Positions 734 to 50,742 of a DNA stretch of 64,000 bases are shown here, one piece after another. Made by a program: the position numbers and the translations under genes. Numbering within the stretch: the first letter of the stretch is position 1; each line of letters begins with the position of its first letter. The stretch spans positions 1,509 through 65,508 of the forward strand of contig CAYXQP010000001.1 in assembly GCA_964467515.1 (NCBI GenBank), given 5' to 3'. Under the pieces are notes generated by a model, which saw only the letters and a list, made by a program, of their open reading frames with translations, did no database searches and was not told the origin of the DNA. This DNA comes from an uncultured Eubacteriales bacterium. Its GTDB lineage: Bacteria; Bacillota; Sulfobacillia; DYIH01; JBBIPI01.

Positions 734-753
734 GGGACGACCCCCCTCGCCCG

Positions 754-784
754 TAGTTATGGGCCGGCCGCTCCTGCTTCATGC
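754..784 (-). promoter_or_regulatory. Candidate forespore-type (sigma-F/sigma-G-like) promoter upstream of sigG: GCATGA, 17 nt, CATAACTA
   Basis: On the minus strand a -35-like GCATGA (779..784) is followed after 17 nt by CATAACTA (754..761), about 20 nt before the sigG TTG. This resembles GCATA/CATAnnTA-type forespore promoters. It rests on motif resemblance only. Confidence 0.3.
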
Positions 785-915
785 GCCCGAGGGAAGCCGT
801 TACATGCGTTACATTTACTTGGACACCCTGGGTGAAGGGGTGCGACGCGCCGCCTCTCCGGGGAACGGCGGAATACGGTGGATGTCAGCAGGCGCGCTTT
901 TCCAGCGGGAACGGT

Positions 916-1653: not shown

Positions 1654-1654
1654 C

Positions 1655-2584: not shown

Positions 2585-2700
2585 ACCCTCTCGCCTGCCC
2601 GATGCCTATGCTCGGACCGTCCCGGTTATGTCCCCCGCCCCCGGGAGCCCGCGGCCGGCAAGGCGGCGCTCCCCGCCCGTGCGCCGGCAGGGCCCCGCCC

Positions 2701-14956: not shown

Positions 14957-15865
14957 CTATACCGGGCCGGCGCGCCTCATCCTCCCCTCCAGGGCGGTCG
15001 CCGCCGCCCCGGCGACAGCCGTCACCATGGCCACCCGGCCCATGGGGAACACGTGGAGGCCGCGGGCGAAGGAGGCCACCGCCCGGGCCAGCTCGCAGGC
15101 CGCCTCCAGCCCGGCCGCCTCGCCTCCCGCCTGGAGCCGGCGCAAAAGTCGGTCGGGCACGCGCACCCCGGGGATGGCCGCGACCCGCCGCGCGAACTCC
15201 AGGTCCCGCAGGGGCATGATCCCGTAAAGGATGGGGACCGCGAGCCCGGCGGCCCGGCAACGCTCCTCGAAGCGGGCGGCGTCCTCGGCCTCGAACACGG
15301 GCTGGGTCTGGACGAAGACCCCTCCCGCCTCCACCTTGGCCGCCAGCCGTTCCACCTCCCGCTCCAGGTCCGCGGCCGTCGGGTTGGCGGCCACGGCCAC
15401 CAGGAGGGAGGTGGGCGAATCGAGGGTCGCGCGGCCGGCGCGCCCGGCGTTCAACTCGGCGATGAGCCGCACCAGCCCGGGGGTGTCCAGCTCGTACACC
15501 CCTCGGGCCTCGGGGCAGTTGCCCGCCTGGGGCGGGTCTCCGTGGAGCACGAGGACGTGGCGGACCCCGAGAGCGTGAGCGCCCAGCAGGTCGGCCCGCA
15601 GACCGATCTGGTTGCGATCACGGCAGGTGACGTGGACTATGGTCTCGACGCCGGTCTCTCTCTGCACGAGGTGGGCGGCCGCGATGGCTCCCATGCGCAC
15701 GTTGGCCAGCGGGCAGTCGGTCACGTTGACGGCGTCCACCAGCGCGCCGAGCTGCCGGGCTCGCTCGAGGAAGCGCCCCGCGTCGGTGCCCCGCGGCGGA
15801 TCCAGCTCCGCCGTCAGGACGAAGGAGCCGGCTGCCAGTTTCTCGGCCAGGGTCAGCGCCAACAC
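14957..15865 (-). CDS. metF: 5,10-methylenetetrahydrofolate reductase MetF
   Basis: The C-terminal about 300 aa of ORF 14957..17773 read ...SFVLTAELDPPRG...VNVTDCPLANVRMG...VHVTCRDRN...VLVLHGDPP, a MetF (MTHFR) sequence. The start is GTG at 15865 or TTG at 15862; the upstream in-frame sequence is shadow. Confidence 0.85.
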   Translation of the reverse strand: MLALTLAEKLAAGSFVLTAELDPPRGTDAGRFLERARQLGALVDAVNVTDCPLANVRMGAIAAAHLVQRETGVETIVHVTCRDRNQIGLRADLLGAHALGVRHVLVLHGDPPQAGNCPEARGVYELDTPGLVRLIAELNAGRAGRATLDSPTSLLVAVAANPTAADLEREVERLAAKVEAGGVFVQTQPVFEAEDAARFEERCRAAGLAVPILYGIMPLRDLEFARRVAAIPGVRVPDRLLRRLQAGGEAAGLEAACELARAVASFARGLHVFPMGRVAMVTAVAGAAATALEGRMRRAGPV

Positions 15866-15949
15866 CTCCGCCGCCGGCGGGGCCGGCGCCCGCGCCGGGC
15901 GGTGCCATCGGCTCTGGAGTAACCGTAACCACCATGATACAACGAAACC

Positions 15950-21234: not shown

Positions 21235-21978
21235 TCATCTCAGGTAGCGCATGGGGTTGACGGCGCGACCGCCCACCCTCACCTCGAAGTGGACGTGGGG
21301 TCCCGTGCAGCGGCCGGAGCAACCCATCAGGGCTATCAGCTCGCCGCGCTCCACCCGCTGGCCGGCGGAGACGAGGACCCGCGAGTTGTGCCCGTAGAGG
21401 GTCTCGCTGCCGTCCCCGTGGCGGATGACGACGACGCGCCCGTAACCGTAGTACCAGGCGGCCAAGGTGACGACACCCGGGGCCACGGCCCTCACCTCGC
21501 TGCCGTAGCGCCCGGCTATGTCCACCCCCCGGTGGAACTCCCCCCGCCGCCAGCCGTAACGGGACGATATGTAGCCCCGCGCCGGCCAGGGCACGGATCC
21601 CCCCAGGTCCGCCCGCGGCAGGGCACCGGCCGCGTCGACGCCGACCGCCGCCCGCGGACGCCCGCCGGCCGGCTGACGCCTGGCGGGCCTCGCCTCCTCG
21701 GGAGCCGGCACCTCCTCCGGGGAGAGAAACTGAGTCTCCTCGGGCGGGACGATGATGGCGTCGGCGTCGGGCAGAGGCTCCTCCTCTGGCTCGCCGGTGA
21801 GGCCGGGAGCCTCGGCGGCCGCGGCCGGGACGGCCGGAAGGGCAGCCAGGGACGCGCGCGCCAGGGGCCGCTCCGCCAGGAAGGAGAGTTGCTTCGGGAG
21901 AAAGGGGGCATCGTGGAACAGGACCGATACCATGAAGATCAACGATAGCCAGCGGCGGGGGCTCAGCCTGCCAGGCAA
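21235..21978 (-). CDS. M23 family metallopeptidase (LytM-type peptidoglycan endopeptidase)
   Basis: 247 aa with an N-terminal transmembrane segment, a low-complexity linker, and a C-terminal M23 catalytic core (HRGVDIAGRYGSEVRAVAPGVV...YGHNSRV...HVHFEV). Confidence 0.8.
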   Translation of the reverse strand: MPGRLSPRRWLSLIFMVSVLFHDAPFLPKQLSFLAERPLARASLAALPAVPAAAAEAPGLTGEPEEEPLPDADAIIVPPEETQFLSPEEVPAPEEARPARRQPAGGRPRAAVGVDAAGALPRADLGGSVPWPARGYISSRYGWRRGEFHRGVDIAGRYGSEVRAVAPGVVTLAAWYYGYGRVVVIRHGDGSETLYGHNSRVLVSAGQRVERGELIALMGCSGRCTGPHVHFEVRVGGRAVNPMRYLR

Positions 21979-22142
21979 GGAGCCACACTCCTTCTGGAAG
22001 CCTCCGGGGTTAGCTGACGGGTTCGGCAGAGAAGGTGAGCCTACCGCCTGGCGGCGGATTCACCCCACAACCTGGGTCCCCCGTACCCGCGGGTGATGGC
22101 CCACGGGATTCGGCTCTTTTTTTGGTGGGCCTGCCGGCCGTT

Positions 22143-23146: not shown

Positions 23147-24286
23147 CTAATAGCGCAACAGAGCGGCCACCTCGGGGACCTCGGCCGCCTGCTCCTCCCC
23201 GCGGGTGAAGGCTATCTCGGCCCCCTGCTCGCAGGCGGCGTCCACCAGGTACTGGGTCGCCTCCCGGGCCTGCCCCCTCGTCCCGCCCAGGCACCTGAGG
23301 CAGCGCCACGGCTCCCCCTCCGGCGTCACGAAGCCGCAGGCGCACTCGTAACCGCGGAGCCTGACGCCCGTGCGCAGGATCAACTGGCGCACGGCGCCGC
23401 GTTGGAGGGCCGCGCTCACGTCGTGAGGGCCCAGGGCGGCCTGCCCGCGGGCCGCCAGCTCCGCCGCCTGCCGCATCAACGCGGCTCCCCTCTCCTGGCG
23501 GTGCCGTGCCACCAGGTCCAGCACGATGGCCTCCATCTCGGCCGCGGACACGTCGGCGGCCGCGTCCACCTCGCCCAAAAGGCGCCTGGCCCAGTCCTGG
23601 GGCAGGGCCTGGCGGGCGAGGCTCCGCACCTCCGCCGGGCCGGCCAGGACGAGCCACTCGGCGGCGGCTCCGCCGGCCACGTCGGCCAGGGCCCCCACCG
23701 CCTGGCGCACATGGCGCCCCAGATGGTCCAGGATGTGGCGGTCTATCCGGCGCTCCTCCAGGTTGGCCCAGCCCCCTTCCCGCACGTTTTGCGGCACCTC
23801 GTTGCAGAAGCCGCCTCTCTCCACGAGGGCGCCGTCGTGGAGGTGGAGGAAGCGCGCCGTCTGGCGACCCACCGCCAGCACGAGGCCCGGCGGCAGCAAC
23901 CAGGACCGCTCCAGGAGGGGAAGCCGGTACGTGACGCGGTCGGCCACCGCCAGGGGCCGCACGTGGCCGTCCACGGGTAGGACCGACCAGAACCCGTCCG
24001 CCGCGCACGAGAAGAAGGCGGCTCCCTTGGCCGCAAAACCGCGCTGCGTCCGCAGCCAAGCGCCCATCCTCTCCACGTCCTCCCGCAGGGACTGGCGCGC
24101 CCGCCGCGGCAGCGACCCGCCGACCAGCGCCACCTCCTGGCCCAGGGTCCGGAACACGTTGAGATAACCGCGCGCCTGGTCACGGGCCCGATCCAGCGGC
24201 AGGTAGAGGCTCGTCACCAGCAATCCCTCGGGGGCACGGTACCGCTCCAGGGCCTCGAACTCCCCCATCTCCGCCACCACGGCCAT
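23147..24286 (-). CDS. eRF1/Dom34(Pelota)-like protein with a C-terminal Cys4 zinc ribbon (baeRF-type release-factor homologue); function unknown
   Basis: About 380 aa. The N-terminal ...GLLVTSLYLPLD... matches the first strand of the eRF1/Pelota N-domain, followed by a central domain and a C-terminal CACGFVTPEGEPWRCLRCLGG. The ATG at 24286 or 24268 is the likely start. Confidence 0.5.
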   Translation of the reverse strand: MAVVAEMGEFEALERYRAPEGLLVTSLYLPLDRARDQARGYLNVFRTLGQEVALVGGSLPRRARQSLREDVERMGAWLRTQRGFAAKGAAFFSCAADGFWSVLPVDGHVRPLAVADRVTYRLPLLERSWLLPPGLVLAVGRQTARFLHLHDGALVERGGFCNEVPQNVREGGWANLEERRIDRHILDHLGRHVRQAVGALADVAGGAAAEWLVLAGPAEVRSLARQALPQDWARRLLGEVDAAADVSAAEMEAIVLDLVARHRQERGAALMRQAAELAARGQAALGPHDVSAALQRGAVRQLILRTGVRLRGYECACGFVTPEGEPWRCLRCLGGTRGQAREATQYLVDAACEQGAEIAFTRGEEQAAEVPEVAALLRY

Positions 24287-24528
24287 CCCCCCTGCCCACC
24301 CTCCGCCGGCACGCAAGCGTACGCTGCCGAACCGCCACCCTTTCCGCCGGGAAAACATTCTCCCCCCGCGGACCGGTTTCCTCCCACCGGCCGGTCGGTT
24401 TCACCGCAGGGGGAAGGCGGTTGTCTCGCGCAGGCCGCGGGTCACCGGTCCTCGGTCCAAGTCCTGGCCGGGAAGGCCCCGCCGACCTGCGCTAAAATGG
24501 GCTGGACCGCCGGAGGAAGGAGGCCGCC

Positions 24529-27075
24529 GTGCCGTCTTTTCGCTCCCTGCTCGGCAAGCGGGTCCTGGTTTGGGACGGCGCCATGGGGACCATGCTCCAG
24601 GCGGCCGGCCTGCCCGCCGGCGGGTGCCCCGAGATCTGGAACCTGGAACGTCCCGACGCCGTCGCGGCCGTGCATCGCGCTTACGTGGAGGCCGGCGCCC
24701 TCATCCTGGAGACCAACACCTTCGGCGGCAACCGGATCAAGCTGGCTCACTACCGCCTGGCCCACCGCGTGCAGGAGATCAACGGCCGCGCCGTGGCCTT
24801 GGCCAGGGAGGCGGCGGGCGACAGGGCCCTGGTGGCGGCCTCCCTGGGCCCCACCGGCCTCTTCGTGGCCCCGCTGGGCGAGATGAGCTTCGAGGAGGCC
24901 TACGACGTCTTCGCCGAACAGGCGGCCGCCTGCGCCGCGGCCGGGGCCGATCTCTTCATCGTGGAGACCATGGCCGACCTGGGCGAGGCCAGGGCCGCCG
25001 TCCTGGCGGCTAGGGCGACCGGACTGCCGGTGGTGGCCCAGCTCACCTTCGCCGAGGGCGGGCGCACCTTCACCGGCACCGATCCCGAGACGGCGGTGCT
25101 GGTCCTCTCCTCGGCCGGGGCCGAAGTGGTGGGGGCCAACTGCTCCGTGGGCCCGGCCGAACTGGTGCAGGTGGTGCGGGCCATGGCGGCGGTGGGGCGG
25201 GTCCCCGTCAGCGTCCAGCCCAACGCCGGCCTGCCCCGGCTGGTGGGCGGCACGGAGACGGTCTTTCCCCTGGGACCGGAGGAGTTCGGCGCCTGGGGAC
25301 CGCGGCTGGTGGAGGCGGGCGCCAGCCTCGTGGGCGGCTGCTGCGGCACCGGACCCGAGCACATCCGCCGGCTGGCGCAGGCCGTCGCCGGCCTGACGCC
25401 TCCCTGGCCGGGCGCGCGGCACCCCGCGCTCACGGGTCTGGCCTCGCGCACCGGCACCTTCTGGTTTCGGGACGAACACCTCCCCCTCGTCATCGGCGAG
25501 CGCATCAACCCGACGGGCCGCAAGAAGCTCCAGGAGGACGTGGCCGAGGGGCGCTTCCTCCTGGTCCGTGAGGAAGCCCGCCGGCAGGCGGCGGCGGGCG
25601 CCCAGGCCCTGGACGTCAACGTGGGAGTGCCCGGCGTGGACGAGGCGGCCGCCATGCGCCGGGCCGTCCTGGCGGTGCAGGAGGCGGCCACCCTCCCCCT
25701 GTGCGTGGATTCCTCGACGCCGGCGGCCCTGGAGGCAGGACTGGCGGCCACCGTGGGGAAACCCCTGGTCAACTCGGCCTCGGGCGAGGCGGGCCGCCTC
25801 GAGGCGGTGCTGCCCCTGGCCCGTCGCTTCGGGGCCGCCCTCATCTTCCTGGCCCTGGACGACGACGGCATCCCCGCCACCGCCGCCGGGCGCCTGGCCG
25901 TGGCGGAGCGCCTGGTGCGGGCGGCGGAGGAGGCCGGGTTCCCCCGGGAGGACGTCTTCCTGGACTGCCTGGCCATGGCCGTGGGGGCCGACCAAGCCTC
26001 GGCCCTGGAGACCCTGCGGACCATCGGCCTGGTGAGGGAGCGGCTGGGCGTCCGCACCGTCCTCGGGCTCAGCAACATCTCCTTCGGCATGCCCAACCGG
26101 CCTCTCCTCAACGCCACCTTCCTGGCCATGGCCCTGGCCGCCGGGCTGGACGCCGTCATCATGAACCCCCTCGACCAGGCGGCCATGGACACGGTGCGGG
26201 CGGCGCGGGTCCTCCTGCGGCGGGACGCCGACGCGCGCCAGTACGTGGCGGTCATGGCGGCCCGCCCCGAGACGCCCCCGGCCGCGGCTCGGGTGGAGGC
26301 CGCGGCCGCGGAGCCGACCGCCGCGGCACCGGTCGAGGACCGGCCCCCGGCGGTTACCACCGCCGCGGGGGAGCCGGCCGAGGAGCGGCCCCCCGCGGGG
26401 GCGGAGCGGGATCCCCTCGACCAGGCCCTCTACCGGGCCGTCCTGGAGGGCAACCCGCAGGGCATCGTGCCCTTGGTGGAACAAGCCCTGGCCGCCGGCC
26501 GGGACCCCCTGGCCATGCTGAACGGCGTCCTCATCCCGGCCATCGAGGAGGTGGGCCGGCTCTTCGGCCAGGGCATCTACTTCCTGCCCCAGCTCATCCT
26601 CTCGGCCAACGCCATGAAGGCCGCCTTCGAGCGGCTCAAGCCCGAGCTGGCCCGGCGCCAGGCCGCCGAGCCGCTGGCCACCATCGTCCTAGCCACGGTG
26701 GAGGGGGACATCCACGACATCGGCAAGAACATCTGCGCCGTCCTCCTGGAGAACCACGGCTTCCGCGTGGTGGACCTGGGCCGGGACGTCCCCGCGGAGC
26801 GCATCCTGGAGGCCGCGCGCCGCGAGGGGGCGGACATCGTAGGCCTCTCCGCCCTCATGACCACCACCATGCCCCGCATGAAGGAGGTGGTGGATCTCTT
26901 CCGGCGCGAGGGGCTGGCCATCCCCGTCATCATCGGGGGTGCCGCCACCGACAAGGCCTTCGCCGAGGAGATCGGCGCCGCCGGCCACGGCGCCGACGCC
27001 GCCGAGGCGGTCCAGGTGGCGCGGCGCCTCCTCGGCCTCGTCTTTCCCGAGACCCGGACCGTGACCCCCTCCTAG
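24529..27075 (+). CDS. metH: Cobalamin-dependent methionine synthase MetH lacking the C-terminal AdoMet reactivation domain
   Basis: 848 aa made of a homocysteine S-methyltransferase domain, a pterin-binding domain, and a B12 cap plus B12-binding domain (DIHDIGKNI...GLSALMTTT). The GTG start follows GGAGGAAGGAGG. Confidence 0.9.
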   Translation: MPSFRSLLGKRVLVWDGAMGTMLQAAGLPAGGCPEIWNLERPDAVAAVHRAYVEAGALILETNTFGGNRIKLAHYRLAHRVQEINGRAVALAREAAGDRALVAASLGPTGLFVAPLGEMSFEEAYDVFAEQAAACAAAGADLFIVETMADLGEARAAVLAARATGLPVVAQLTFAEGGRTFTGTDPETAVLVLSSAGAEVVGANCSVGPAELVQVVRAMAAVGRVPVSVQPNAGLPRLVGGTETVFPLGPEEFGAWGPRLVEAGASLVGGCCGTGPEHIRRLAQAVAGLTPPWPGARHPALTGLASRTGTFWFRDEHLPLVIGERINPTGRKKLQEDVAEGRFLLVREEARRQAAAGAQALDVNVGVPGVDEAAAMRRAVLAVQEAATLPLCVDSSTPAALEAGLAATVGKPLVNSASGEAGRLEAVLPLARRFGAALIFLALDDDGIPATAAGRLAVAERLVRAAEEAGFPREDVFLDCLAMAVGADQASALETLRTIGLVRERLGVRTVLGLSNISFGMPNRPLLNATFLAMALAAGLDAVIMNPLDQAAMDTVRAARVLLRRDADARQYVAVMAARPETPPAAARVEAAAAEPTAAAPVEDRPPAVTTAAGEPAEERPPAGAERDPLDQALYRAVLEGNPQGIVPLVEQALAAGRDPLAMLNGVLIPAIEEVGRLFGQGIYFLPQLILSANAMKAAFERLKPELARRQAAEPLATIVLATVEGDIHDIGKNICAVLLENHGFRVVDLGRDVPAERILEAARREGADIVGLSALMTTTMPRMKEVVDLFRREGLAIPVIIGGAATDKAFAEEIGAAGHGADAAEAVQVARRLLGLVFPETRTVTPS

Positions 27076-42200: not shown

Positions 42201-42341
42201 TCAACCTCTGCGCGCAGCCCGCTCCAGGTCGCCGAGCCTGTCCTCCACCGCCTTCTGGCGGCGCTGCAGGTTCATGACGAAGAGGATGAGTCCCACCCAG
42301 ATGATGCTGTAGCCGATGAACATCCAGACCTCCGGCTTCAC
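42201..42341 (-). CDS. ccmD: Heme exporter protein CcmD (small single-TM protein)
   Basis: 46 aa, VKPEVWMFIGYSIIWVGLILFVMNLQRRQKAVEDRLGDLERAARRG. The GTG start overlaps the ccmC stop (GTGA). Confidence 0.5.
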   Translation of the reverse strand: MKPEVWMFIGYSIIWVGLILFVMNLQRRQKAVEDRLGDLERAARRG

Positions 42342-43009
42342 CGCCGTCCCTCCTCCCTGAGATGCTCCCGCCAGGCTTCCACCCGCCAGCGCAGGTCCTC
42401 GGTCCGCAGGCGCCAGCGGAGGATGTAGACATACAGTAACGTGAAGGTCAGGACCGCCACACCCATGGCCGCCCCCATCAGGGGCTCCATGTCCATCTTG
42501 CCGATGCGGACCACCTCCGGGTGCAGCCCCCGCCACCAGCGCACCGACATGTGGATGATGGGCACGTCGAAGAAACCGAGGATGCCCAGGGCGGCGGCCA
42601 GCCGGGCCCGGCGTTCGTCCCCCTCGGCCGTGGCCCGCAGATACAGGTAGCCGATGTAGATGAGCCAGAGGACAAGGGTGGCCGTCAGCCGGGGGTCCCA
42701 GGTCCACCAGGTGCCCCACACGGCCCGCGCCCAGGTGGCTCCCGAGAGGAGCGCCATGCTGGTGAAGAAGACGCCCAGCTCCGCCGAGGAGTAGGCCAGC
42801 CGGTCGTAGCGCCGCTCGTTGGTCCGCAGATAGAGGATGCTGGCCACGAACACCACCAGGAAGCTCAGGTAGGCGTTCCAGGCCGAGGCCACGTGGAAGT
42901 AGAAGATCCGCTGCGGTGGTCCCATGGTGTGCTCCTCCGGAGCCACGAGGAGGCCCATGGCCAGCGCCACCGGACCCATCACCGCCAGGAGCCATCCGAG
43001 AGCCGTCAT
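42338..43009 (-). CDS. ccmC: Heme exporter protein CcmC
   Basis: 223 aa; ...WGTWWTWDPRLTATLVLW... is the CcmC tryptophan-rich motif. Confidence 0.85.
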   Translation of the reverse strand: MTALGWLLAVMGPVALAMGLLVAPEEHTMGPPQRIFYFHVASAWNAYLSFLVVFVASILYLRTNERRYDRLAYSSAELGVFFTSMALLSGATWARAVWGTWWTWDPRLTATLVLWLIYIGYLYLRATAEGDERRARLAAALGILGFFDVPIIHMSVRWWRGLHPEVVRIGKMDMEPLMGAAMGVAVLTFTLLYVYILRWRLRTEDLRWRVEAWREHLREEGRR

Positions 43010-43025
43010 GCACCCATCCCTCCCG

Positions 43026-43706
43026 TCAGCCTTCGAAGAGATAATCGAACAACACGAAGGGCAGAGCCACGAAGATGAGGTCGTACGCCCCCAGGAAGGC
43101 GAAACCCGCCAGGGCGCCGGCCCCGTCGCCGGCCAGAGCGGCCTCCGTGGCCCGCACGCTGGCGATGATGACGGGGGCCAGGAGGGGAAAGAGGAGGAGG
43201 GGGAGCAGCACCTCGCTGGCCCGCGTCCCGCCCGCCAGCACGCTGACGAAGGTCCCCACCGCCGTGAAGCCCACGGTGCCGAGGAGCAAGGCCGCCGCCA
43301 GGAGGGGCAGGCTGCCCCGCCACGGCTCGCCGAGGAAGACGAAGAAGAGGGGCGTGAGGACCACCTCCATCCCCAGCATGAAGAGGACGTTGCTGAGGCA
43401 CTTGCCGAGGAAGAGGGTGCTCCTGTCCACCGGCGTGAGGAGGAGCCCCTGGAAGGCGGCGTTGTACCGCTCCATGGCGAAGGAACGGTTGAGGCCCAGG
43501 GAACCGCCGAAAAAATAGGCGATCCACATGATGCCGGCGAATATGGGCCCGAGGTCGTGCTCCGCCGGGTTGAAGGCGAAGCTGAAGATGACCAGGATCA
43601 TGAAGGCGAAGAGGAGGAGCGAGAAGAGCATCTCCCGGGCGCGCAGCTCCACGACGAGGTCCTTCCAGACCAGGGTCAGCACGGGTCCCATCAGGCTTCC
43701 TCCCAC
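43026..43706 (-). CDS. ccmB: Heme exporter permease CcmB
   Basis: 226 aa with six transmembrane segments in the CcmB family. An internal ATG at 43691 would give a TGATG overlap with the ccmA stop. Confidence 0.8.
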   Translation of the reverse strand: MGGSLMGPVLTLVWKDLVVELRAREMLFSLLLFAFMILVIFSFAFNPAEHDLGPIFAGIMWIAYFFGGSLGLNRSFAMERYNAAFQGLLLTPVDRSTLFLGKCLSNVLFMLGMEVVLTPLFFVFLGEPWRGSLPLLAAALLLGTVGFTAVGTFVSVLAGGTRASEVLLPLLLFPLLAPVIIASVRATEAALAGDGAGALAGFAFLGAYDLIFVALPFVLFDYLFEG

Positions 43707-44422
43707 GGCGCCGCAGCCGCGGCCGGCGCACCCACGGCTTCCTCGTAGAGGGCGGCCAACTCCGCGGCGCCCCTGCCCCGGACCGGCACATGACAGGCGA
43801 CAGACCCCCGGTGGAGGACGGCGAAGGCGTCGGCCACCTGAGCGCTGGCCTCGAAGTCGTGGGAGACCAGGAGACAGGTCCCGCCCTCCGCCCGGAAACG
43901 GCCCAGCAGCTCCACCAGGAGAGCCTGCCCGTCCCGGTCCAGCCCCGTGAAAGGCTCGTCCAGCAGCAGCACGCGCGGCCGCTGCACCAGGGCCCGGGCG
44001 ATGGCCAGCCGCTGCTGCATGCCGCGGGAGAAGGTGCCCACCGGGTCACGTGCATAGGGCTCGAGGCCGACGGCCGCCAGGAGCTCGTCCACCCGCCTGC
44101 CCGCATCGGTAACACCGTACAGGCCGGCGTAGAAACGCAGGTTCTCCGCCGCCGTCAGGTAGTCGTAGAGAAAGGTCTGGTGCGCCACCACGCCCAGGCA
44201 GCGCCTCACCTCCGCCTCCCGGCCGCGGAGGGGACGATCCTGCCAGAGCAGTTGCCCCGACGACGGCCGCTGCAGGAGGGCCAGGATGCGCAGGAGGGTG
44301 CTCTTGCCCGCGCCGTTGGGACCGTGCAGGGCCAGAACCCGCCCCGGCACCAGGTCCAGGTCCACCCCCCGCAGAACCTCCCGCAGGCCGTGCCTCTTGG
44401 TGACGCCTCGCGCCGCCAGCAC
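43691..44422 (-). CDS. ccmA: Heme exporter ATP-binding protein CcmA (ABC ATPase)
   Basis: Walker A (GPNGAGKST), the signature motif (SRGMQQRLAIARAL) and Walker B (LLLDEP). The start is likely GTG at about 44422, because the ORF otherwise overlaps ccmF. Confidence 0.8.
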   Translation of the reverse strand: MLAARGVTKRHGLREVLRGVDLDLVPGRVLALHGPNGAGKSTLLRILALLQRPSSGQLLWQDRPLRGREAEVRRCLGVVAHQTFLYDYLTAAENLRFYAGLYGVTDAGRRVDELLAAVGLEPYARDPVGTFSRGMQQRLAIARALVQRPRVLLLDEPFTGLDRDGQALLVELLGRFRAEGGTCLLVSHDFEASAQVADAFAVLHRGSVACHVPVRGRGAAELAALYEEAVGAPAAAAAPWEEA

Positions 44423-44435
44423 TCCGGGCCTCTCG

Positions 44436-46619
44436 TCAGCCGCCGACAGACGGAGACCGGCGCCTGCGCCGTCCCTCGCCGCCGCCCTCTCGCCCGCGTC
44501 CGCCACCCTCTGCGCCACCGTCCGCCTGCGCCGCCGGGCTTCGCTGCTGGACAGCGACCCGCTCCAACTCGCCCCGCAGCTCCGCGTACGCGTCGGGGTC
44601 CAATTTGCCCGACCGGTAGTCCACCTCCAGCTCCGCCAGCCGGCGCAGGGCCGCCTCCGCGCGCCCCGCCGGCACCGCTCTGGTGAAGGCGATGGTCCAG
44701 AGGGTGCCGAATATGATCAGGTAGAAACCGATCCAGACCCAGGCCACACCGGGATTCCACCAGCTCTTGAAGGTGGCGGCGGCCCCGGCCGCCTCCCAGC
44801 CCACCAGGATGATGTACAGGTCGCCCGCCAGGGTGCCCATGATGGCGGCCTCGGTGGACGGCCCCATCTGCTCGTAGCCGGGATAGAAGCGGCGCTCGGG
44901 CTTGAGCGTGGTCACGTAGCGACCGTCCTTCTCCACGTTCATGAGAGCGTAAACGGAACCCACGTTGCCGGGGAGGACATCCTCCATCAATCCCTGATAG
45001 GTGACCCGATAGCCGTAGAGGTCGAAGGACTGGCCCACCCGCAGTCCGGGCGTCTCCAGCACCTGCTGGAAAAACTGGGAGGCCACGATGCCGAAGGCCA
45101 TGACCACCACGCCCACGTGCACCGAATAGCCGCCGTAGCGCCGGGGGTTCTTGAGGAAGAGCCGTCCCAGACCCCGCACGAAAGATTCCCCCGTGAGGCG
45201 GGCCCTGGCGCGCCCCGCCACCCAGAACTCCCGCAAGGCCACCGCCAGGGCGAACAGGGCCACCGCGTCACCCAGCACGGCACCGGCCCTGCGCATCCCC
45301 AAGAGCACCAGCGTCACCGCCATGGCTGCGCCCAAGGCCAGCGGCACGGCGCCGAGGCGGGCCAGCCGGCCCGCCGCGGCCCGCCGCCACCCGAGCAGGG
45401 GGCAGACCCCCATGAGGGCGAGGAGGGCCACGAAGAGGGGTCCGCCCACGCGGTTGAAGTAGGGGGCGCCCACGGTCACGTCCTGGCCCGCCAGCCTGGT
45501 GATGAGCGGATAGGTGGTGCCCAGCAGCACCACCAGGGTGATGCCCACCAGGATCAGATTGTTGACGAGGAAGCTCGTCTCCTTGGACCAGGTGGACTCC
45601 AGGGAGCCGCCCTCGGCCACCACGTCGTACCGGTCGAAGACCAGGTACAGGGAGCCGGCCATGACGAGGCCGATGAAGCCCATGAACCACGGCCCGATGG
45701 GCGACTGGGCGAAGGCGTGGACCGAGTTGAGGATGCCGCTCCGGGTGACGAAGGTGCCGAAGACCACCAGCACGAAGGTGAAGATGATGAGGAGGATGTT
45801 CCAGTTCTTCAACAGGCCGCGGCGCTCCTCCACCATGGCCGAGTGGAAGAAGGCCGTGGCCACCAGCCACGGCATGAAGGAGGAATTCTCCACCGGGTCC
45901 CAGCCCCAGTAGCCGCCCCAGCCCAGCTCGTGGTAAGCCCACCAGCCGCCCACCACGATGCCGGCCGTGAGGAAGAGCCAGGCCACCATGGTCCACCGCC
46001 GCGTGATGCGGAGCCAGTCGGTGCCGCGGTGGCGGTTGAGAAGGGTGGAGATGCCGAAGGCGTAGGGCACCGTCATGCCCACGAAGCCGGTGTAGAGGAG
46101 AAGCGGGTGCCCCATCATGCCCGGGTCCTGGAGCAGAGGCGTCATGCCGCGGCCGTCGGGCGGGGCCGGGAACTGCTGGCGGAAGGGATCGGCTATGAAC
46201 CCGACGATGAGGGAGAAGAAGGCGGAGATGAAGGCGAGCACCGCCAGGGCGTGGGGAAGGAGCTGACCGGCCTCCCGCTCCCACAGGTAGGCCACCAGGG
46301 CGGTGTAGATGGTCAGCATCCAGAGCCAGAGGAGCAGGGATCCCTCCTGGGACGACCAGAAGGCACTGATCTTGTACATGGTGGGCTGGTCGATACGGCT
46401 CGTGGCCTCCACGTAGGCAACGCTGAAGTCATTGGTCAGCAGGGCGTAGAAGAGGGCGACGGCGGCCAGGCTGACGAGGCCGAGCAGGAGGAGGAGCCCC
46501 CGCCTACCGGCGCGGACCAGACCCGCGTCGCGCCGGTGGCCCCCCAGGGCCAGCAGCGCCACGCAGACCAGGGAAACGAAAAAGGCGAGGACGAGGCTCG
46601 CGTGTCCCAGCTTGGGCAT
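44436..46619 (-). CDS. ccmF: Cytochrome c-type biogenesis protein CcmF (heme lyase), with a C-terminal extension
   Basis: 727 aa with multiple transmembrane segments, a WWD-type tryptophan-rich region (...WAYHELGWGGYWGWDPVENSS...) and conserved histidines. Confidence 0.85.
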   Translation of the reverse strand: MPKLGHASLVLAFFVSLVCVALLALGGHRRDAGLVRAGRRGLLLLLGLVSLAAVALFYALLTNDFSVAYVEATSRIDQPTMYKISAFWSSQEGSLLLWLWMLTIYTALVAYLWEREAGQLLPHALAVLAFISAFFSLIVGFIADPFRQQFPAPPDGRGMTPLLQDPGMMGHPLLLYTGFVGMTVPYAFGISTLLNRHRGTDWLRITRRWTMVAWLFLTAGIVVGGWWAYHELGWGGYWGWDPVENSSFMPWLVATAFFHSAMVEERRGLLKNWNILLIIFTFVLVVFGTFVTRSGILNSVHAFAQSPIGPWFMGFIGLVMAGSLYLVFDRYDVVAEGGSLESTWSKETSFLVNNLILVGITLVVLLGTTYPLITRLAGQDVTVGAPYFNRVGGPLFVALLALMGVCPLLGWRRAAAGRLARLGAVPLALGAAMAVTLVLLGMRRAGAVLGDAVALFALAVALREFWVAGRARARLTGESFVRGLGRLFLKNPRRYGGYSVHVGVVVMAFGIVASQFFQQVLETPGLRVGQSFDLYGYRVTYQGLMEDVLPGNVGSVYALMNVEKDGRYVTTLKPERRFYPGYEQMGPSTEAAIMGTLAGDLYIILVGWEAAGAAATFKSWWNPGVAWVWIGFYLIIFGTLWTIAFTRAVPAGRAEAALRRLAELEVDYRSGKLDPDAYAELRGELERVAVQQRSPAAQADGGAEGGGRGREGGGEGRRRRRSPSVGG

Positions 46620-46622
46620 GGG

Positions 46623-47066
46623 CTACGACCTCTTCCCCTCGGACCCGGAGCCCTTTTGCGTCTCGATGTAACGCGACGGGCACTTGACGAGGAGCTGCCG
46701 GGCCTGGAACACGCCGTTTTCATCCACCCTGCCCCCCGCCACCACCTCGATGCCCCTGCCGGTGGAGGGCTGCACCTCGTCCGTCAGGGTATCGGGCTTG
46801 GCCCCGTGGTGGAAGACCTGGATGGTCCTGCCCCCGTCCTCCAGGGTGAAGCGCACGTCCAGGGCCATGGGGTCGTAGCGGAGGCTGCCCGGGACCACGT
46901 AGCCCTTGACCTGCACGTACTTGTCCCCCAGCTCTCCCTTTTTGGACAGATATTCGTCCACCGTGTAGTAGAAGGTGGCGTTGGGTCTCAGGTTGAGCCC
47001 CGCCAGGGCCAGGATGGCGCCCAGCACCGCCACGGTCGCCAGGGTTATCTTGGTGCTCCTGCTCAT
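46623..47066 (-). CDS. ccmE: Cytochrome c-type biogenesis heme chaperone CcmE
   Basis: Starting at the ATG at 47066 (MSRSTKITLATVAVLG...), a single transmembrane segment is followed by the CcmE OB-fold (VKGYVVPGSL...FTLEDGG). The start follows GGGAGG. Confidence 0.8.
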   Translation of the reverse strand: MSRSTKITLATVAVLGAILALAGLNLRPNATFYYTVDEYLSKKGELGDKYVQVKGYVVPGSLRYDPMALDVRFTLEDGGRTIQVFHHGAKPDTLTDEVQPSTGRGIEVVAGGRVDENGVFQARQLLVKCPSRYIETQKGSGSEGKRS

Positions 47067-47216
47067 GTGCACGACCTCCCGGTTGGAACAGTGCCAGTCA
47101 CAATCGCATTTATCGTAGCAGCCGCGCCGGCACATCGCATCAGAAGGGCATAAGAATTGAAAGCCGCACCGAACCAAAGGACACGTGGCGACGCGGCACC
47201 GGGGCGGCGGCGCGCG

Positions 47217-47615
47217 TCAGACCACGCGGACGGGTTCCTCTTCGACCCGGCCGTCGCGGATGAGAAAGGCTCGGAGGACGGGCCGGTCGGGCACGGCCAG
47301 GGACAGGATCAGATAGCGGGCATCGGGATAGTGGGCCTGGGCCACGTCGGTGGCGGAGGGATAGGCCTCGGTCCGCGGATGGGAGTGGAAGACGGCCACC
47401 AGCTCCTCTCCCGCCTCCTCGGCCGCCCTGAGGTGGCGGAGAAGCTGCGCGGGCGGGATGCGGTATCTCACCTCGGGCCGGGGGTCCTCGTTATCGGTGG
47501 GCACGAAGCGCTCCGGCCGGCCCCCGTTGCCCAGGAGGAGGCCGCACGCCTCCCGGGGAGCCTGGGAACGAGCATGGGCCACCAGCGCCTCGTAGACGGT
47601 CCGGGAAATCTTCAC
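47217..47615 (-). CDS. JAMM/MPN+ metalloprotease (Mec+-type; candidate CysO C-terminal processing peptidase)
   Basis: The JAMM motif EACGLLLG ... HSHPRTEAYPSATD (E, HxH, S, D). The GTG start at 47615 overlaps the cysM stop (GTGA). Confidence 0.75.
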   Translation of the reverse strand: MKISRTVYEALVAHARSQAPREACGLLLGNGGRPERFVPTDNEDPRPEVRYRIPPAQLLRHLRAAEEAGEELVAVFHSHPRTEAYPSATDVAQAHYPDARYLILSLAVPDRPVLRAFLIRDGRVEEEPVRVV

Positions 47616-48583
47616 CGCCCGTCGCCCTCCATCATGCTGAGGTACCGCTCGCCCGTGTCGGGCAGGATGGCCACCACCGTGCGGCCGACGCCCAGCCGCT
47701 CCGCCACCCGCAGGGCGGCCCAGACGGCGGCGCCGCTGGAGAAGCCGCACAGGATGCCCTCCTCGCGGGCCAGGCGCCGCGCCGTGGCGATGGCGTCCTC
47801 GTCCCGCACGGCCACCACCTCGTCATAGACGGACCGGTCCAGGACGCCCGGCACGAAGCCCGCCCCCAGGCCCTGGATGCGCGTGAAGCCCGGCCGACCG
47901 CCGGAGAGGACCGCCGACCGCGCCGGCTCCACGGCCACCACGCGCACCCCCGGAACCTCCTCCCGGAGCACCCGGCCCACCCCCGTGAGGGTCCCGCCCG
48001 TGCCTACCCCGGCGACGAAGGCATCCAGGTGGCCGCCCGTGTCCGCCAGAATCTCGCGGGCTGTCGTCTCGCGGTGGACGGCCGGGTTGGCGGGGTTCTC
48101 GAACTGGCGGGGCAGAAAGTAGCCGTGCCGGCCCGCCAGCTCCCGGGCGGCGTAGACGGCTCCCGTCATGCCCTCGATGGCCGGCGTCAGGACGAGCTCC
48201 GCGCCCAGCCACTGGAAGAGGCGGCGGCGCTCCACGCTCATGTCCTCGGGCATGGTGAGGATGAGCCTGTACCCGCGGGCGGCCGCCACCACGGCGAGCC
48301 CTATCCCCGTGTTGCCGCTGGTGGCCTCCACGACGGTATCGCCCGGGCGGAGTAGCCCCTCCCGCTCGGCGGCCTCGATCATGGAGAGGGCGATCCGGTC
48401 TTTCACGCTCCCGCCGGGATTGCGGGACTCCAGTTTGCCCAGCACATGGGCGCAGCCGGGAGGAACGACGCGCCGGAGCCGAACCAGGGGGGTGCGACCG
48501 ATGGTGGCCAGGACGTCGGGCGCCACTCCGGGCCAAGGGGGCAGGTCGCCGTCCCCCGGCTGGGGTGCCATCTCGGGCGCCAT
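47612..48583 (-). CDS. cysM: Cysteine synthase (CysM/CysK; PLP-dependent)
   Basis: ...SVKDRIAL...TSGNTGIGLA...GVGTGGTL... are the PLP-fold cysteine synthase motifs. Confidence 0.85.
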   Translation of the reverse strand: MAPEMAPQPGDGDLPPWPGVAPDVLATIGRTPLVRLRRVVPPGCAHVLGKLESRNPGGSVKDRIALSMIEAAEREGLLRPGDTVVEATSGNTGIGLAVVAAARGYRLILTMPEDMSVERRRLFQWLGAELVLTPAIEGMTGAVYAARELAGRHGYFLPRQFENPANPAVHRETTAREILADTGGHLDAFVAGVGTGGTLTGVGRVLREEVPGVRVVAVEPARSAVLSGGRPGFTRIQGLGAGFVPGVLDRSVYDEVVAVRDEDAIATARRLAREEGILCGFSSGAAVWAALRVAERLGVGRTVVAILPDTGERYLSMMEGDGR

Positions 48584-48587
48584 GGGC

Positions 48588-48878
48588 CTAGCGCCGCCCG
48601 CCGGCGCCGCCCGCCATGGCGGGGATGAAAGCCACCTCGTCTCCGTCCCGCAGGGCCGTGTCCACGCCCTGCAGGCCCCTGATCTCCTCCTGGTTCACGA
48701 AGACATTGATGTACTCGGCCACCTGGCCCCGCTCATCCAGGATCTGCCGAGCGAGCTGCGGGTAGCTCTCGGCCAGGCGGCGCAGCAGCTCGGCCACCGT
48801 GCCCGCCTCCACGGCCAGGCGCGCCTGACCGTCCGTGTGGCGCCGGAAGGGCGTAGGTACGTACACGTTGACAGTCAC
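48588..48878 (-). CDS. cysO: ThiS/MoaD-family sulfur-carrier protein (CysO-like), with a short C-terminal extension after Gly-Gly
   Basis: 96 aa, MTVNVYVPTPFRRH...GDEVAFIPAMAGG-AGGRR. The GG is followed by five residues, which fits a pro-form trimmed by the adjacent JAMM protease. It sits immediately upstream of cysM. Confidence 0.7.
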   Translation of the reverse strand: MTVNVYVPTPFRRHTDGQARLAVEAGTVAELLRRLAESYPQLARQILDERGQVAEYINVFVNQEEIRGLQGVDTALRDGDEVAFIPAMAGGAGGRR

Positions 48879-49165
48879 GCCATCACCGTCCCTTTCTCCC
48901 GGGCCATTTTACCGAATGTTGCTCGCCTGCTGCGAGCACCCCCGAATCCCGAGTGCATTCATCGGGTTTGACGTGATTTTAGCCAGGAGGGGGGACCCGG
49001 TCAAGAAGCCGTTCAGACATCATCGGGGACGGGGTCGCCGCCCGAGGGCAGCAACGGCCCCTCCGCCCGTCTGTCAGCGGCGGCCGGTGGCGTGGAGTCC
49101 CGTCACCTCCTCCGCGGTGCGCCGATAAACTGCTATCGCTTTCCGCCCGGGTGGCGGGGGAGGTG

Positions 49166-50742
49166 ATGGGGGTGGCGGGGGGTGCCATGCCGATGCCGGG
49201 CGGGGAAGCCATGCCCGCACCCGAGCGCGACGCCAATCCGGCGCTCCTCTCTCACGCGGCCGCCGAGCTGCCCCTCCTGGGAGCCCTCCTGGCCTATGCC
49301 GCCGAGCGCCCGGCCCGCTTCCACATGCCGGCCCACCAGGGCGGGCGCGGGGCCCCCTCCCCCCTCGTGGCCGCCATCGGACCGCGGGCCCTCAACCTGG
49401 ACGTGACCGGGGTCGAGGGCCTGGACGACCTGCACCAGCCGGGGGGGCCATCGCCGCCGCTGAGCGGCGGGCCGCCGCCCTCTTCGGGGCCGACCGGACC
49501 TTCTTCCTGGTGAACGGCACCACGGCCGGCGTCCAGGCCATGCTCCTGGCCGCCGCCGGCCCGGGCGAGCGCGTGGCGGTGCCTCGCAACGCCCATAAGT
49601 CCATCGTGTCCGCCCTCATCCTGAGCGGAGCCGAGCCCGTCTTCCTCCTGCCCGCCCTGGACCCGGTCCTGGGGATACCCCTGGGCGTCCCGCCCGGCGA
49701 GCTGGCCCGCGCCCTGGGGCGCGGGTGCCGGGCCGCCCTGGTGGTCAGCCCCACCTACCACGGCCTCTGCTCCGACCTCGGCGCCCTGGCGGCGGCCGCC
49801 CACGCGGCGGGCATACCTCTCCTCGTGGACGAGGCCCATGGAGCCCATTTCGGGTTCCACCCCGCCCTCCCTCCCTCGGCCCTGGCCCAGGGAGCCGACG
49901 CCTGCGCCCAGGGCGCCCACAAGGTCCTCGGCAGCCTGACCCAGGCCTCCCTCCTCCACGTGAGGGGCGAAAGGCTTCCGGCGGCGCGGGTGCACGAGTT
50001 GCTGCGGATCCTCCAGTCCACCAGCGCCTCCTACCTCCTGCTGGCGTCGCTGGAGGCGGCCTGCTGGCAGATGGGCCGCGACGGCCGCGAACGCCTGGCC
50101 CGCACCCTGGCGCTGGCCGCCGAGGTGCGGGAACGGCTGCGGCGCCTGCCGGGGCTGCACGCGCCCGGCGAGGAGATGGCGAAGCGACCGGGCGTGGCCG
50201 CCTGGGACCCCACCCGTCTCCTGGTGCTGGTGGACCAGCTGGGCATCACCGGCCGCCAGGCGGAGCTGTACCTCCGCACGCGCCACGGCATCCAGGCGGA
50301 ACTCTCCGATCTGCGCTTCCTTCTCTTCCTCTTCACGCCGGGCACGGCCCCGGCCGACGCGGAGAGGCTGGTGCTCGGCCTGGCCGACCTGGCCCGCCAC
50401 GCCGTCGCCCTGCGCGACCCCGCCCGCCAGCGGTTGCTCCGCGAAGCCGCCGCCCTGCCCCCCCTGCCGCCGTTGCCGCCCGCCGCCGCCACGCCGCGGG
50501 AGGCCTTCTTCGCTCCCCGCCGCCGCGTCCACCTGGAGGCGGCCCGCGGTTCCGTGGCCGCCGAGGTGGTCACCTGCTATCCGCCCGGCATCCCCATCCT
50601 CTGGCCCGGTGAGCGCATCACGGCGGAAGCCGTGGCCTACCTCTCCCTCCTCCGGCGGGCCGGTTTCCACTTCTCGGGGCCGGTGGACCCGGAACTGGAG
50701 ACGGTCCAGGTCCTCGCCGGCCGGGCGGGTGGCCGCCGGTGA
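49166..50742 (+). pseudogene. Orn/Lys/Arg decarboxylase family (PLP-dependent) gene split by an apparent 1-nt deletion in a G7 tract; this may be an assembly artefact
   Basis: The N-terminal frame reads ...LLGALLAYAAERPARFHMPAHQGGRG...LDVTGVEGLDDLHQPGG, then shifts at GGGGGGG (49441..49447). The +1 frame continues ...FLVNGTTAGVQAMLLAAAGPGERVAV... to 50742. One extra G would restore QPGGAIAAAERRAAALFGADRTFFLVNGTT. The ATG at 49166 follows GGGGGAGGTG. Confidence 0.5.

Follow-up and report, generated by a model that had tools for sequence, protein, structure and literature searches.

Which sulfur source serves a cysteine synthase whose gene is enclosed between those of a ThiS/MoaD-fold carrier protein and a JAMM metalloprotease, and to which class does this synthase belong? 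The question is raised by three genes clustered on the minus strand of a 64-kb stretch of DNA, the whole of which was analysed and is called the window hereafter. An initial annotation likened them to the CysO-CysM-Mec+ pathway, the chemistry of which, together with MoeZR, is established in Mycobacterium tuberculosis (PMC3227635, PMC11361707). In this species the genes of a ThiS-fold carrier, CysO (Rv1335), of a PLP cysteine synthase of fold type II, CysM (Rv1336), and of a JAMM hydrolase, Mec+ (Rv1334), are likewise clustered, and that of the E1 lies elsewhere in the genome (PMC3227635). The same chemistry is proposed for the window operon, with the difference that its PLP enzyme is of the CysK class, whereas M. 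tuberculosis CysM represents the O-phosphoserine-specific class.

Three coupled genes and a CysK-class synthase

Both the ORF list and the reading of the sequence agree with the three tightly linked minus-strand genes initially described (Table 1). The stop codon of the carrier gene is separated by a 4-nt gap from the ATG of the PLP enzyme gene (PALP), the TGA of which is overlapped by the GTG start of the JAMM (JAB) gene in a GTGA arrangement, and the Pfam matches of all three ORFs obtained by profile search are strong enough to exclude chance. The JAMM motif is intact, as was also initially noted, with E22, H77, H79, S87 and D90 all present. The JAMM ORF could extend upstream to 47750; the 132-aa form is the one called in two independent assemblies. 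The cluster is flanked downstream by ccmE and upstream by an Orn/Lys/Arg decarboxylase gene, and neither cysE nor sulfate-reduction genes occur nearby.

Table 1. Features of the cluster and of its flanks in the window.
Feature	Position	Strand	Basis
JAMM/Prok-JAB zinc metalloprotease (Mec+-like), 132 aa from overlapping GTG	47217..47615	-	PF14464 Prok-JAB, E=1e-25
JAMM motif H77-S-H79-x7-S87-x2-D90, intact	47346..47387	-	sequence and alignment to 2KKS
Catalytic Glu22 of the JAMM protein	47550-47552	-	sequence and alignment to 2KKS
CysK-class PLP cysteine synthase (O-acetylserine sulfhydrylase type), 323 aa	47612..48583	-	PF00291, E=2e-77
ThiS/MoaD-fold sulfur-carrier protein (CysO-like), 96 aa, GTG start, predicted capped pro-form	48588..48878	-	PF02597 ThiS, E=2e-15
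Gly90-Gly91 codons, predicted activation site	48606..48611	-	columns invariant in 27 homologues; Pfam ThiS profile stops here
Five-residue cap AGGRR after Gly-Gly, predicted JAMM protease substrate	48591..48605	-	family tail comparison
Sigma-70-like promoter (TTGACC-17-TAAAAT)	48976..49004	-	ca. 100 nt 5' of the carrier gene; consensus match only
Weak terminator-like hairpin, 5-bp stem, poor T tract	47182..47195	-	between the JAB stop and ccmE

With respect to the PLP enzyme, the CysM label proposed initially has to be replaced. Its score against the NCBIfam cysK equivalog TIGR01139 (431.3 bits) exceeds the cutoff of 350.95, that against the cysM model (309 bits) stays below the cutoff of 394, and its closest PDB matches are Geobacillus CysK (2EGU, 389 bits) and M. 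tuberculosis CysK1 (362 bits), M. tuberculosis CysM being absent from the best 60. It possesses the PLP lysine (K61), the S89-G-N-T-G93 (Asn) loop and a CysK-type SAVLSGGRPGFTRIQG loop of seven residues, and is devoid of the C-terminal extension of CysM. In the alignment, Gln237 (47873-47875) occupies the column of M. tuberculosis CysM Arg220, a residue reported, in the work of Agren et al. from 2008, as the O-phosphoserine determinant. The enzyme shares 70-75% identity with many ordinary CysKs, named cysteine synthase A in their sources, at least one of which (P0074, 74% identical) has no ThiS or JAB gene nearby, and hence no sequence feature marks it as a protein-thiocarboxylate specialist.

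Both the profile assignment and the resemblance to this unlinked CysK speak for a housekeeping, sulfide-dependent enzyme, the cysteine of which would be used by the carrier and the JAMM protease for some other sulfur transfer, such as tRNA thiolation or the supply of cofactor or natural-product sulfur. In the same sense, no other cysteine synthase can be seen in the window, and this reading was proposed for the class 4c operons described in PMC1779556. This explanation is nevertheless considered unlikely. The carrier is nearest to CysO rather than to MoaD, ThiS or TtuB-type carriers, and its family is also linked to CysM-class enzymes, for which the use of the thiocarboxylate is proven in M. 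tuberculosis. In addition, translational coupling and the occurrence, in another locus (L043), of a natural fusion ORF made of ThiS, a linker and a CysK-class PALP are poorly explained by cysteine supply alone, and an enzyme that would accept the sulfur for a different product is missing from the cluster.

The capped carrier, the JAMM protease and a putative distant E1

The best PDB match of the carrier is CysO from M. tuberculosis (3DWG_C), aligned over the full length (1-91 versus 1-93, E=8e-15), followed by a CysO-type carrier from Amycolatopsis (4N6E_B). A MoaD or thiamine-ThiS identity, envisaged initially as the reading that would overturn the pathway assignment, was rejected: the moaD equivalog is matched with 30 bits for a cutoff of 66, the genomic context is neither that of molybdopterin nor that of thiamine synthesis, and neither moaE nor thiG was recognised on reading the ORF translations of the window, part of which were also Pfam-scanned.

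The C-terminus of the carrier reads IPAMAGG-AGGRR, the first Gly-Gly corresponding to residues 90-91, whereas CysO from M. tuberculosis ends in GG. The five-residue tail, pointed out initially, is nothing particular in the family comparison, in which most of the carrier homologues examined exhibit a variable post-GG tail or a ThiF fusion. Depending on the homologue, the tails differ in sequence and range from 0 to 22 aa, and a 97%-identical relative carries an unrelated tail of 22 aa; capped GG tails are the rule in this family. The second Gly-Gly of the tail (AGG-RR) was discarded as a processing site, since the conserved domain ends at G90-G91 in the Pfam profile and in all homologues, and the tails are unconserved.

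The JAMM protein matches the PDB entry 2KKS (E=9e-22), is 42-47% identical to JAB genes occurring in CysM-class clusters, and resembles the Pyrococcus JAMM1. Capped carriers accompanied by their own JAMM protease have several counterparts. In Wolinella, a capped carrier and its JAMM maturase, HcyS/HcyD, were reportedly characterized by Krishnamoorthy and Begley in 2011. In the QbsE/QbsD (thioquinolobactin), CxnE/CxnF (chuangxinmycin) and PtmS2/PtmS1 pairs, the residues following Gly-Gly are removed by the clustered JAMM protease prior to activation, as proposed here, so that the uncapping of carriers by JAMM proteases is well precedented (PMC5925218, PMC6006322). The sulfur of the Qbs, Cxn, Ptm and Hcy systems is, however, delivered to siderophores, antibiotics or homocysteine, and not to a CysK-class cysteine synthase.

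The same two folds are found in archaeal sampylation (SAMP1/HvJAMM1), which raises the idea that the carrier could be a ubiquitin-like modifier of the SAMP/TtuB type, the JAMM protein its maturase and deconjugase, and the cysteine synthase a mere neighbour or a target. The carrier scores marginally above the SAMP1 cutoff (63.4 bits, cutoff 60) and the desampylase model is the top NCBIfam match of the JAMM protein. The SAMP1 match is non-discriminating, since SAMP-type carriers also transfer sulfur, and the desampylase score (89 bits) stays far under its cutoff of 130. Moreover, no UbaA-type E1 accompanies the cluster or occurs in the window, and the genes conserved next to the carrier family, namely those of PALP, rhodanese-E1, sulfite reductase, TusA and DsrE, belong to sulfur assimilation, which makes the modifier role very improbable.

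As to the activating enzyme, the initial annotation pointed to the absence of an adjacent E1 and regarded it as unusual. The absence was extended to the whole 64 kb, which lack any E1, rhodanese, TusA or DsrE and where tblastn with real ThiF, rhodanese-ThiF, DsrE and TusA queries returned noise, as did an earlier search of the window with an approximate E. coli ThiF query. The second part of the statement has to be corrected, because moeZR of M. tuberculosis (Rv3206c) is likewise distant from cysO and cysM (Rv1335/Rv1336) (PMC3227635) and actinomycete systems with capped carriers use an unlinked MoeZ-type E1 (PMC5925218, PMC6006322); an unlinked E1 is normal for the pathway. Used as a protein query, the E1 domain of a syntenic relative (L088) retrieved close ThiS-ThiF fusions; of those checked, the two closest came from the sequencing runs of other samples, and none of the fusions matched was attributable to the source organism.

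Outside its own group, the carrier is most closely related to the ThiS portion of ThiS-ThiF fusions (64-75% identity), other stand-alone carriers reaching at most 60%, and therefore the E1 was probably lost from the locus in the window lineage. In L088, a ThiS~ThiF fusion, a DsrE gene and two small genes are found where the window displays the carrier alone. Together with the wholly different tails of carriers that are 97% identical, these observations would fit a decaying remnant which has lost its fused E1 and DsrE-like genes, the carrier and the JAMM protein being dead and only the CysK still working. The selection data do not agree with such a decay. As compared with L003, at a dS of about 0.5 between two E1-less genomes, dN/dS amounts to 0.07 for the carrier, 0.085 for PALP and 0.23 for JAB; all three genes are under purifying selection, strongly so in the case of the carrier and clearly so in that of the JAMM gene. 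Every catalytic motif is intact, the E1-less arrangement is shared by two relatives (L003 and L089), and M. tuberculosis and actinomycetes normally rely on a shared E1 encoded apart from the cluster (PMC3227635, PMC5925218), all of which render the remnant quite improbable.

Linkage in other genomes

Among the matches listed, 80 GTDB loci encoding the carrier family were surveyed. PALP accompanies the carrier in 52 of them and is adjacent on the same strand in 51; JAB occurs in 25, ThiF in 41, and PALP, JAB and ThiF all three in 17. The ThiS, PALP and JAB linkage is conserved across phyla and the co-oriented adjacency recurs in unrelated lineages. A PALP of the CysK class is linked to the carrier family in Rokubacteria (L040, in the order PALP-ThiS-JAB), Dehalococcoidia (L033), Mariprofundaceae (L013 and L018) and relatives of the window itself (L003, L088 and L089). 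In Moorellaceae AZ2 (L090), a CysK-class PALP belongs to the series sulfite reductase-TusA-ThiS~ThiF-PALP-JAB.

Neighbourhoods of this type were catalogued in 2006 by Iyer, Burroughs and Aravind (PMC1779556). Their class 4c, distributed in many phyla, associates ThiS/MoaD and JAB with an E1-rhodanese and a cysteine synthase; class 4d consists of ThiS/MoaD, JAB and a cysteine synthase without E1, the operon also containing ClpS and a helical protein; and class 4e corresponds to sulfur-assimilation operons of low-GC Gram-positives with ThiS, JAB, a rhodanese-less E1 and SirA/TusA. The window cluster represents the minimal ThiS, cysteine synthase and JAB form of classes 4c and 4d, devoid of both the E1-rhodanese fusion typical of the former and the ClpS and helical-protein genes that characterize the latter and the actinobacterial operon; among the Pfam families listed for the neighbours of the L003 cluster, none is ClpS. 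L088 and L090 resemble class 4e with a cysteine synthase in addition. The survey of 2006 differs from the present comparison in that CysK-class and CysM-class partners were not separated, O-acetylhomoserine sulfhydrylase was listed instead of cysteine synthase in the Gram-positive operons, and the high-GC sporulating lineage of the window was unsampled. The expectation that the arrangement is known mainly from actinobacteria is at variance with both this catalogue and the Moorellaceae example. The find is thus real yet fairly ordinary, since the arrangement was already catalogued in 2006 and is widespread; at present, it stands as a useful correction of annotation and not as a discovery.

A probable thiocarboxylate route to cysteine and its wider reading

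Because the carrier is CysO-like, its context is neither that of molybdopterin nor that of thiamine, and the ThiS, PALP and JAB linkage is conserved, the best reading of the cluster is that of an operon of three genes which makes cysteine with a protein thiocarboxylate as the sulfur donor, resembling CysO/CysM/Mec+ from M. tuberculosis and built around a CysK-class enzyme, a reading that we hold with moderate confidence. The initial comparison with the mycobacterial pathway is accordingly retained for the carrier, the clustered JAMM protease and the thiocarboxylate, and given up for the class of the synthase.

The biochemical steps and the choice of the substrate, which we infer from gene content and from the related systems, would be as follows. 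The carrier would be synthesized with its AGGRR cap, which the JAMM protease would cut off to expose Gly90-Gly91. Gly91 would then be adenylated by a ThiF/MoeB/MoeZ-type E1 encoded elsewhere and converted to the thiocarboxylate through a persulfide relay. The CysK-class enzyme would form the aminoacrylate, most likely from O-acetylserine rather than from O-phosphoserine, and the carrier thiocarboxylate would attack it, the flexible C-terminus entering the active site in the manner of the serine-acetyltransferase tail in CysK complexes. Following an S-to-N acyl shift, the JAMM protease would hydrolyse the carrier-cysteine amide to release L-cysteine and the recycled carrier. It counts against this model that the sole biochemically proven synthase of the pathway is of the CysM class and O-phosphoserine-specific; no experiments on a CysK-class partner were found in the searchable literature. 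The lack of an E1, rhodanese, TusA or DsrE within the 64 kb, the likeness of the enzyme to CysKs such as the unlinked P0074 and the missing cysE and sulfate-reduction genes weigh in the same direction.

CysK-class O-acetylserine sulfhydrylases are so far known only as sulfide users. A broader and more tentative proposal, to which we give slightly less than an even chance, is that they constitute a second, independently recruited acceptor class for CysO-type thiocarboxylates, and that in the window lineage the fission of a ThiS-E1 fusion gave rise to the three-gene operon and a trans-acting E1, the cap being a leftover of the fusion linker. In that case, the synthesis of cysteine from a thiocarboxylate would depend on neither O-phosphoserine nor CysM and would exist in at least two enzyme flavours, CysM with O-phosphoserine and CysK probably with O-acetylserine. 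The alternative pathway called mycobacterial would become far more general than textbooks imply, should a CysK-class enzyme take its sulfur from the thiocarboxylate, and many cysteine synthase A annotations could be misread as sulfide-dependent. The locus would also offer a clean natural case of the interconversion of ThiS-E1 fusions, stand-alone capped carriers and JAMM proteases, which bears on the origins of ubiquitin-like systems.

With regard to expression, one site of the promoter type was found for 0.1 expected in shuffled sequences, and transcription could proceed past the weak hairpin into ccmE. No sign of a regulatory RNA in the 250-nt leader came from Rfam searches, which yielded no element at the gathering threshold on the window and none at E<=1 on 48800-49250. 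Finally, the initial remark that the organism is an endospore-former is backed by the SigG (443 bits, cutoff 372), SigE (366 bits, cutoff 339) and SpoIIGA-like genes located at 1-2605 of the window.

The gene cluster and its genomic surroundings

The gene cluster is real, and its functional reading in the initial annotation, a protein-thiocarboxylate route to cysteine of the CysO-CysM-Mec+ kind, is broadly right, apart from the name given to the PLP enzyme. The three linked minus-strand genes were borne out by their ORFs, Pfam matches and spacing: a sulfur-carrier protein of the ThiS/MoaD fold, a PLP cysteine synthase (PALP) and a JAB/JAMM protease follow one another head to tail, and the same three gene models were called in two independent assemblies. 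Four bases separate the carrier stop from the PALP start, and the PALP, with both its PLP lysine K61 and its SGNTG loop, ends in a TGA overlapping the GTG start of the JAB gene (GTGA), as previously described together with the intact JAMM signature, which reads E22, H77-S-H79, S87 and D90. An Rfam search of the leader of the carrier gene returned no element.

Features of the cluster and of its surroundings (positions in the window)
Feature	Position	Strand	Remarks
SigG, SigE, SpoIIGA-like protease	1-2605		sporulation genes
Methylenetetrahydrofolate reductase	14960-16000	minus	confirmed by Pfam
M23 peptidase ORF	21238-22059		
c-di-AMP (ydaO-type) riboswitch	21983-22125	minus	90.7 bits, E=6e-20; immediately upstream of the M23 peptidase ORF
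Release-factor-like ORF	23150-24400	minus	bacterial archaeo-eukaryotic release-factor-like families (baeRF family 10, E=4e-13)
Cobalamin-dependent methionine synthase, MetH-like	24496-27072	plus	by reading of the ORF translation
ccmE, ccmF, ccmA, ccmB, ccmC	42338-47066	minus	System I cytochrome c maturation
Weak hairpin	after JAB gene		
JAB ORF	47217-47615	minus	132 aa; Prok-JAB PF14464, E=1e-25
PALP ORF	47612-48583	minus	323 aa; fold-type II PLP enzyme, PF00291, E=2e-77
Carrier ORF	48588-48878	minus	GTG start, 96 aa; ThiS PF02597, E=2e-15
Sigma-70-like promoter	~100 nt upstream of carrier gene		TTGACC-17-TAAAAT; 1 site vs 0.1 expected

The window, with a G+C content of about 72%, also encodes FtsZ/FtsA and chemotaxis genes, and the earlier remark about an endospore-former is reasonable because of the sporulation genes it contains. 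Upstream of the cluster occur, divergently, an Orn/Lys/Arg decarboxylase gene and two Amidase_3 genes; neither moaE nor thiG was recognised on reading the ORF translations of the window. Directly downstream, on the same strand, the ccmE-F-A-B-C set shares the window with spoIIGA-sigE-sigG; sporulating Bacillota usually depend on System II (ResBC/CcsBA) for cytochrome c maturation. The order PALP-JAB-ccmE is retained in L003, L088 and L089, the loci of the window's own relatives. The two other sulfur amino-acid genes, for methylenetetrahydrofolate reductase and the MetH-like enzyme, are unlinked to the cysteine operon.

The carrier, its tail and its distribution

Judged by sequence, the carrier is CysO-like. 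Its top solved structure is the CysO of M. tuberculosis (3DWG_C, full length, E=8e-15), followed by the Amycolatopsis CysO-type carrier 4N6E_B, and it fails the MoaD equivalog (30 bits vs 66). With the SAMP1 model it obtains a marginal pass (63.4 vs 60); a SAMP-like role in protein conjugation is considered very unlikely.

The ThiS profile aligns through its last position to residue 91, and five residues follow the Gly-Gly (...IPAMAGG-AGGRR). The PAMAGG motif is conserved in all 26 protein-database homologues and is followed by completely divergent tails, the shortest of 1 residue and the longest of about 50. A genome scan identified at least 595 loci encoding the family, and in the best 80 of these, taken for comparison, the carrier either possesses 0-22 residues past GG or is fused to a ThiF domain; the L003 carrier, 97% identical to that of the window, ends in an unrelated 22-residue tail. 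Owing to this variability, the five-residue cap, correctly described at the outset, is typical of the family and not exceptional. Uncapping of such carriers by a JAMM protease is established for QbsE/QbsD and has been proposed for CxnE/CxnF and PtmS2/PtmS1 (PMC5925218, PMC6006322).

Among the same best 80 of at least 595 loci, a PALP gene occurs in 52 (adjacent on the same strand in 51), ThiF in 41, JAB in 25, always accompanied by PALP, and all three together in 17. Chloroflexota, Actinomycetota, Acidobacteriota, Binatia, Planctomycetota and Rokubacteria, among others, are represented; the supposed restriction mainly to actinobacteria is not supported. Iyer, Burroughs and Aravind catalogued the neighbourhood in 2006, as class 4c (ThiS/MoaD, E1-rhodanese, JAB and cysteine synthase), class 4d (the actinobacterial form with ClpS) and class 4e (related sulfur-assimilation operons of low-GC Gram-positives) (PMC1779556). 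The cluster is a member or modest variant of this neighbourhood, which is widespread in public genomes, and its capped carrier, its lack of an adjacent activating enzyme (E1) and its non-actinobacterial host are all three ordinary.

Carriers of the same family from Streptomyces and relatives (L049, L056, L059, L063, L068-L070, L074, L077, L079, L081, L082, L085) have neither PALP nor JAB nor ThiF in the surrounding 6 kb and in many cases end in GG-C or GG; the family therefore occurs in other contexts too. In Acidobacteriota (L046, L073, L078, L084, L086) and Anaerolineae (L008, L028), carrier and E1 form a single protein of about 480-500 aa. PALP and JAB genes lie ahead of this fusion, the JAB being divergent (~30% identical to that of the window), an arrangement suggesting that a JAMM protease frees the carrier from the E1 to which it is fused.

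A probable CysK-class partner

The PLP enzyme, initially called CysM, is by its sequence of the CysK class: it scores above the cutoff of the NCBIfam cysK equivalog (431 bits vs 351) and below that of cysM (309 vs 394). Among solved structures, Geobacillus CysK (389 bits) and M. tuberculosis CysK1 (362 bits) match it best, and M. tuberculosis CysM does not appear in the best 60. Ten enzymes scanned show that carrier-linked PALPs fall in two classes, the CysM-like (M. tuberculosis CysM, L050, L006, L004) and the CysK-class (window, L088, L090, L040, L033, L013); the actinobacterial L050 enzyme, for example, scores 360 bits with M. tuberculosis CysM and only about 225 with CysKs. The aligned CysK-class enzymes have in common a loop (SAVLSGGRPGFTRIQG) that is seven residues longer, lack the C-terminal extension of M. 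tuberculosis CysM, and exhibit a Gln (window Q237) at the Arg/Lys column of the CysM class (Arg220). This arginine, according to Agren et al. in 2008, reportedly binds the phosphate of O-phosphoserine, and O-acetylserine is accordingly predicted as the amino-acid substrate of the window PALP.

A housekeeping CysK that merely adjoins an unrelated carrier system is unlikely, even though many proteins named cysteine synthase A are 70-75% identical to the window PALP, one CysK 74% identical to it (P0074) has no such neighbours, which counts against specialisation, and no residue signature marking carrier-linked PALPs was found. The order carrier-PALP-JAB-ccmE is kept in the window's three relatives, a Moorellaceae genome (L090) displays sulfite reductase-TusA-ThiS~ThiF-PALP-JAB, and a Rokubacteria genome (L040) PALP-ThiS-JAB, its PALP being 70% identical to that of the window. 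Several of the top PALP matches come from contigs equal in length to those of the top ThiS-ThiF matches, which suggests that the contigs are the same, and in an Armatimonadetes MAG (JACPRY010000058.1; L043, 5962-6537) a single ORF, cut by the contig end and possibly an assembly error, joins a ThiS-type carrier (…PAMAGG) through a basic 23-residue linker to a CysK-class PALP. The CysK-class partner is modestly new, no biochemical experiment on one having been found in the literature that we could search.

The activating enzyme and a putative pathway

No ThiF-type E1, rhodanese, TusA or DsrE occurs in the whole 64 kb. The initial annotation rightly saw no adjacent E1 but wrongly considered this unusual, since the MoeZR of M. 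tuberculosis (Rv3206c) is encoded far from cysO/cysM (Rv1335/1336) (PMC3227635) and an unlinked MoeZ is likewise borrowed by actinomycete natural-product pathways (PMC5925218).

Among outside relatives, the window carrier most resembles ThiS domains belonging to ThiS-ThiF fusions (P0162, 75%; P0158, 71%; P0160, 70%), all other stand-alone carriers ranking below them at 60% identity or less. Where the window has the carrier alone, between decarboxylase and PALP, L088 encodes ThiS~ThiF, proteins of 126 and 90 aa and, between these two, a DsrE-like protein. According to the simplest reading, the window lineage would have lost the E1 module from the locus, the variable cap being what remained beyond the Gly-Gly; the polarity may also be the opposite, with the fusion arising later. 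This apparent fission from a ThiS-E1 fusion is also modestly new. In L088 (2760-4985) and the related locus L092 (651-2468), the fusion, an E1 without rhodanese, precedes a DsrE-like and two small uncharacterised proteins, a set that resembles a sulfur relay of the DsrE/TusA kind, which would supply the carrier, and that is wholly missing from the window.

Window and L003 share the E1-less arrangement with L089, and comparison of the first two gives a dN/dS of 0.07 for the carrier, 0.085 for PALP and 0.23 for JAB, at a dS of about 0.45-0.6. Such low values indicate that selection maintains all three genes, and an E1 would consequently have to act in trans; a protein search did not find that of the source organism, the closest E1 matches belonging to other samples. 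A decaying remnant, which the loss of the E1 module might suggest, is very unlikely, being contradicted by this selection and by the intact motifs.

The chemistry of M. tuberculosis, summarised in PMC3227635 and PMC11361707, serves as the template for all but the first step of the proposed pathway. By analogy with QbsD, the JAMM protease would first remove the carrier cap. A trans-acting E1 would then adenylate and thiocarboxylate Gly91, and the CysK-class enzyme would form the aminoacrylate, probably from O-acetylserine, for attack by the carrier thiocarboxylate. After an acyl shift, hydrolysis of carrier-Cys by the JAMM protease would release cysteine. The C-terminus of serine acetyltransferase is already accommodated in CysK active sites, and from this we infer a structural rationale for a carrier tail in a CysK-class site.
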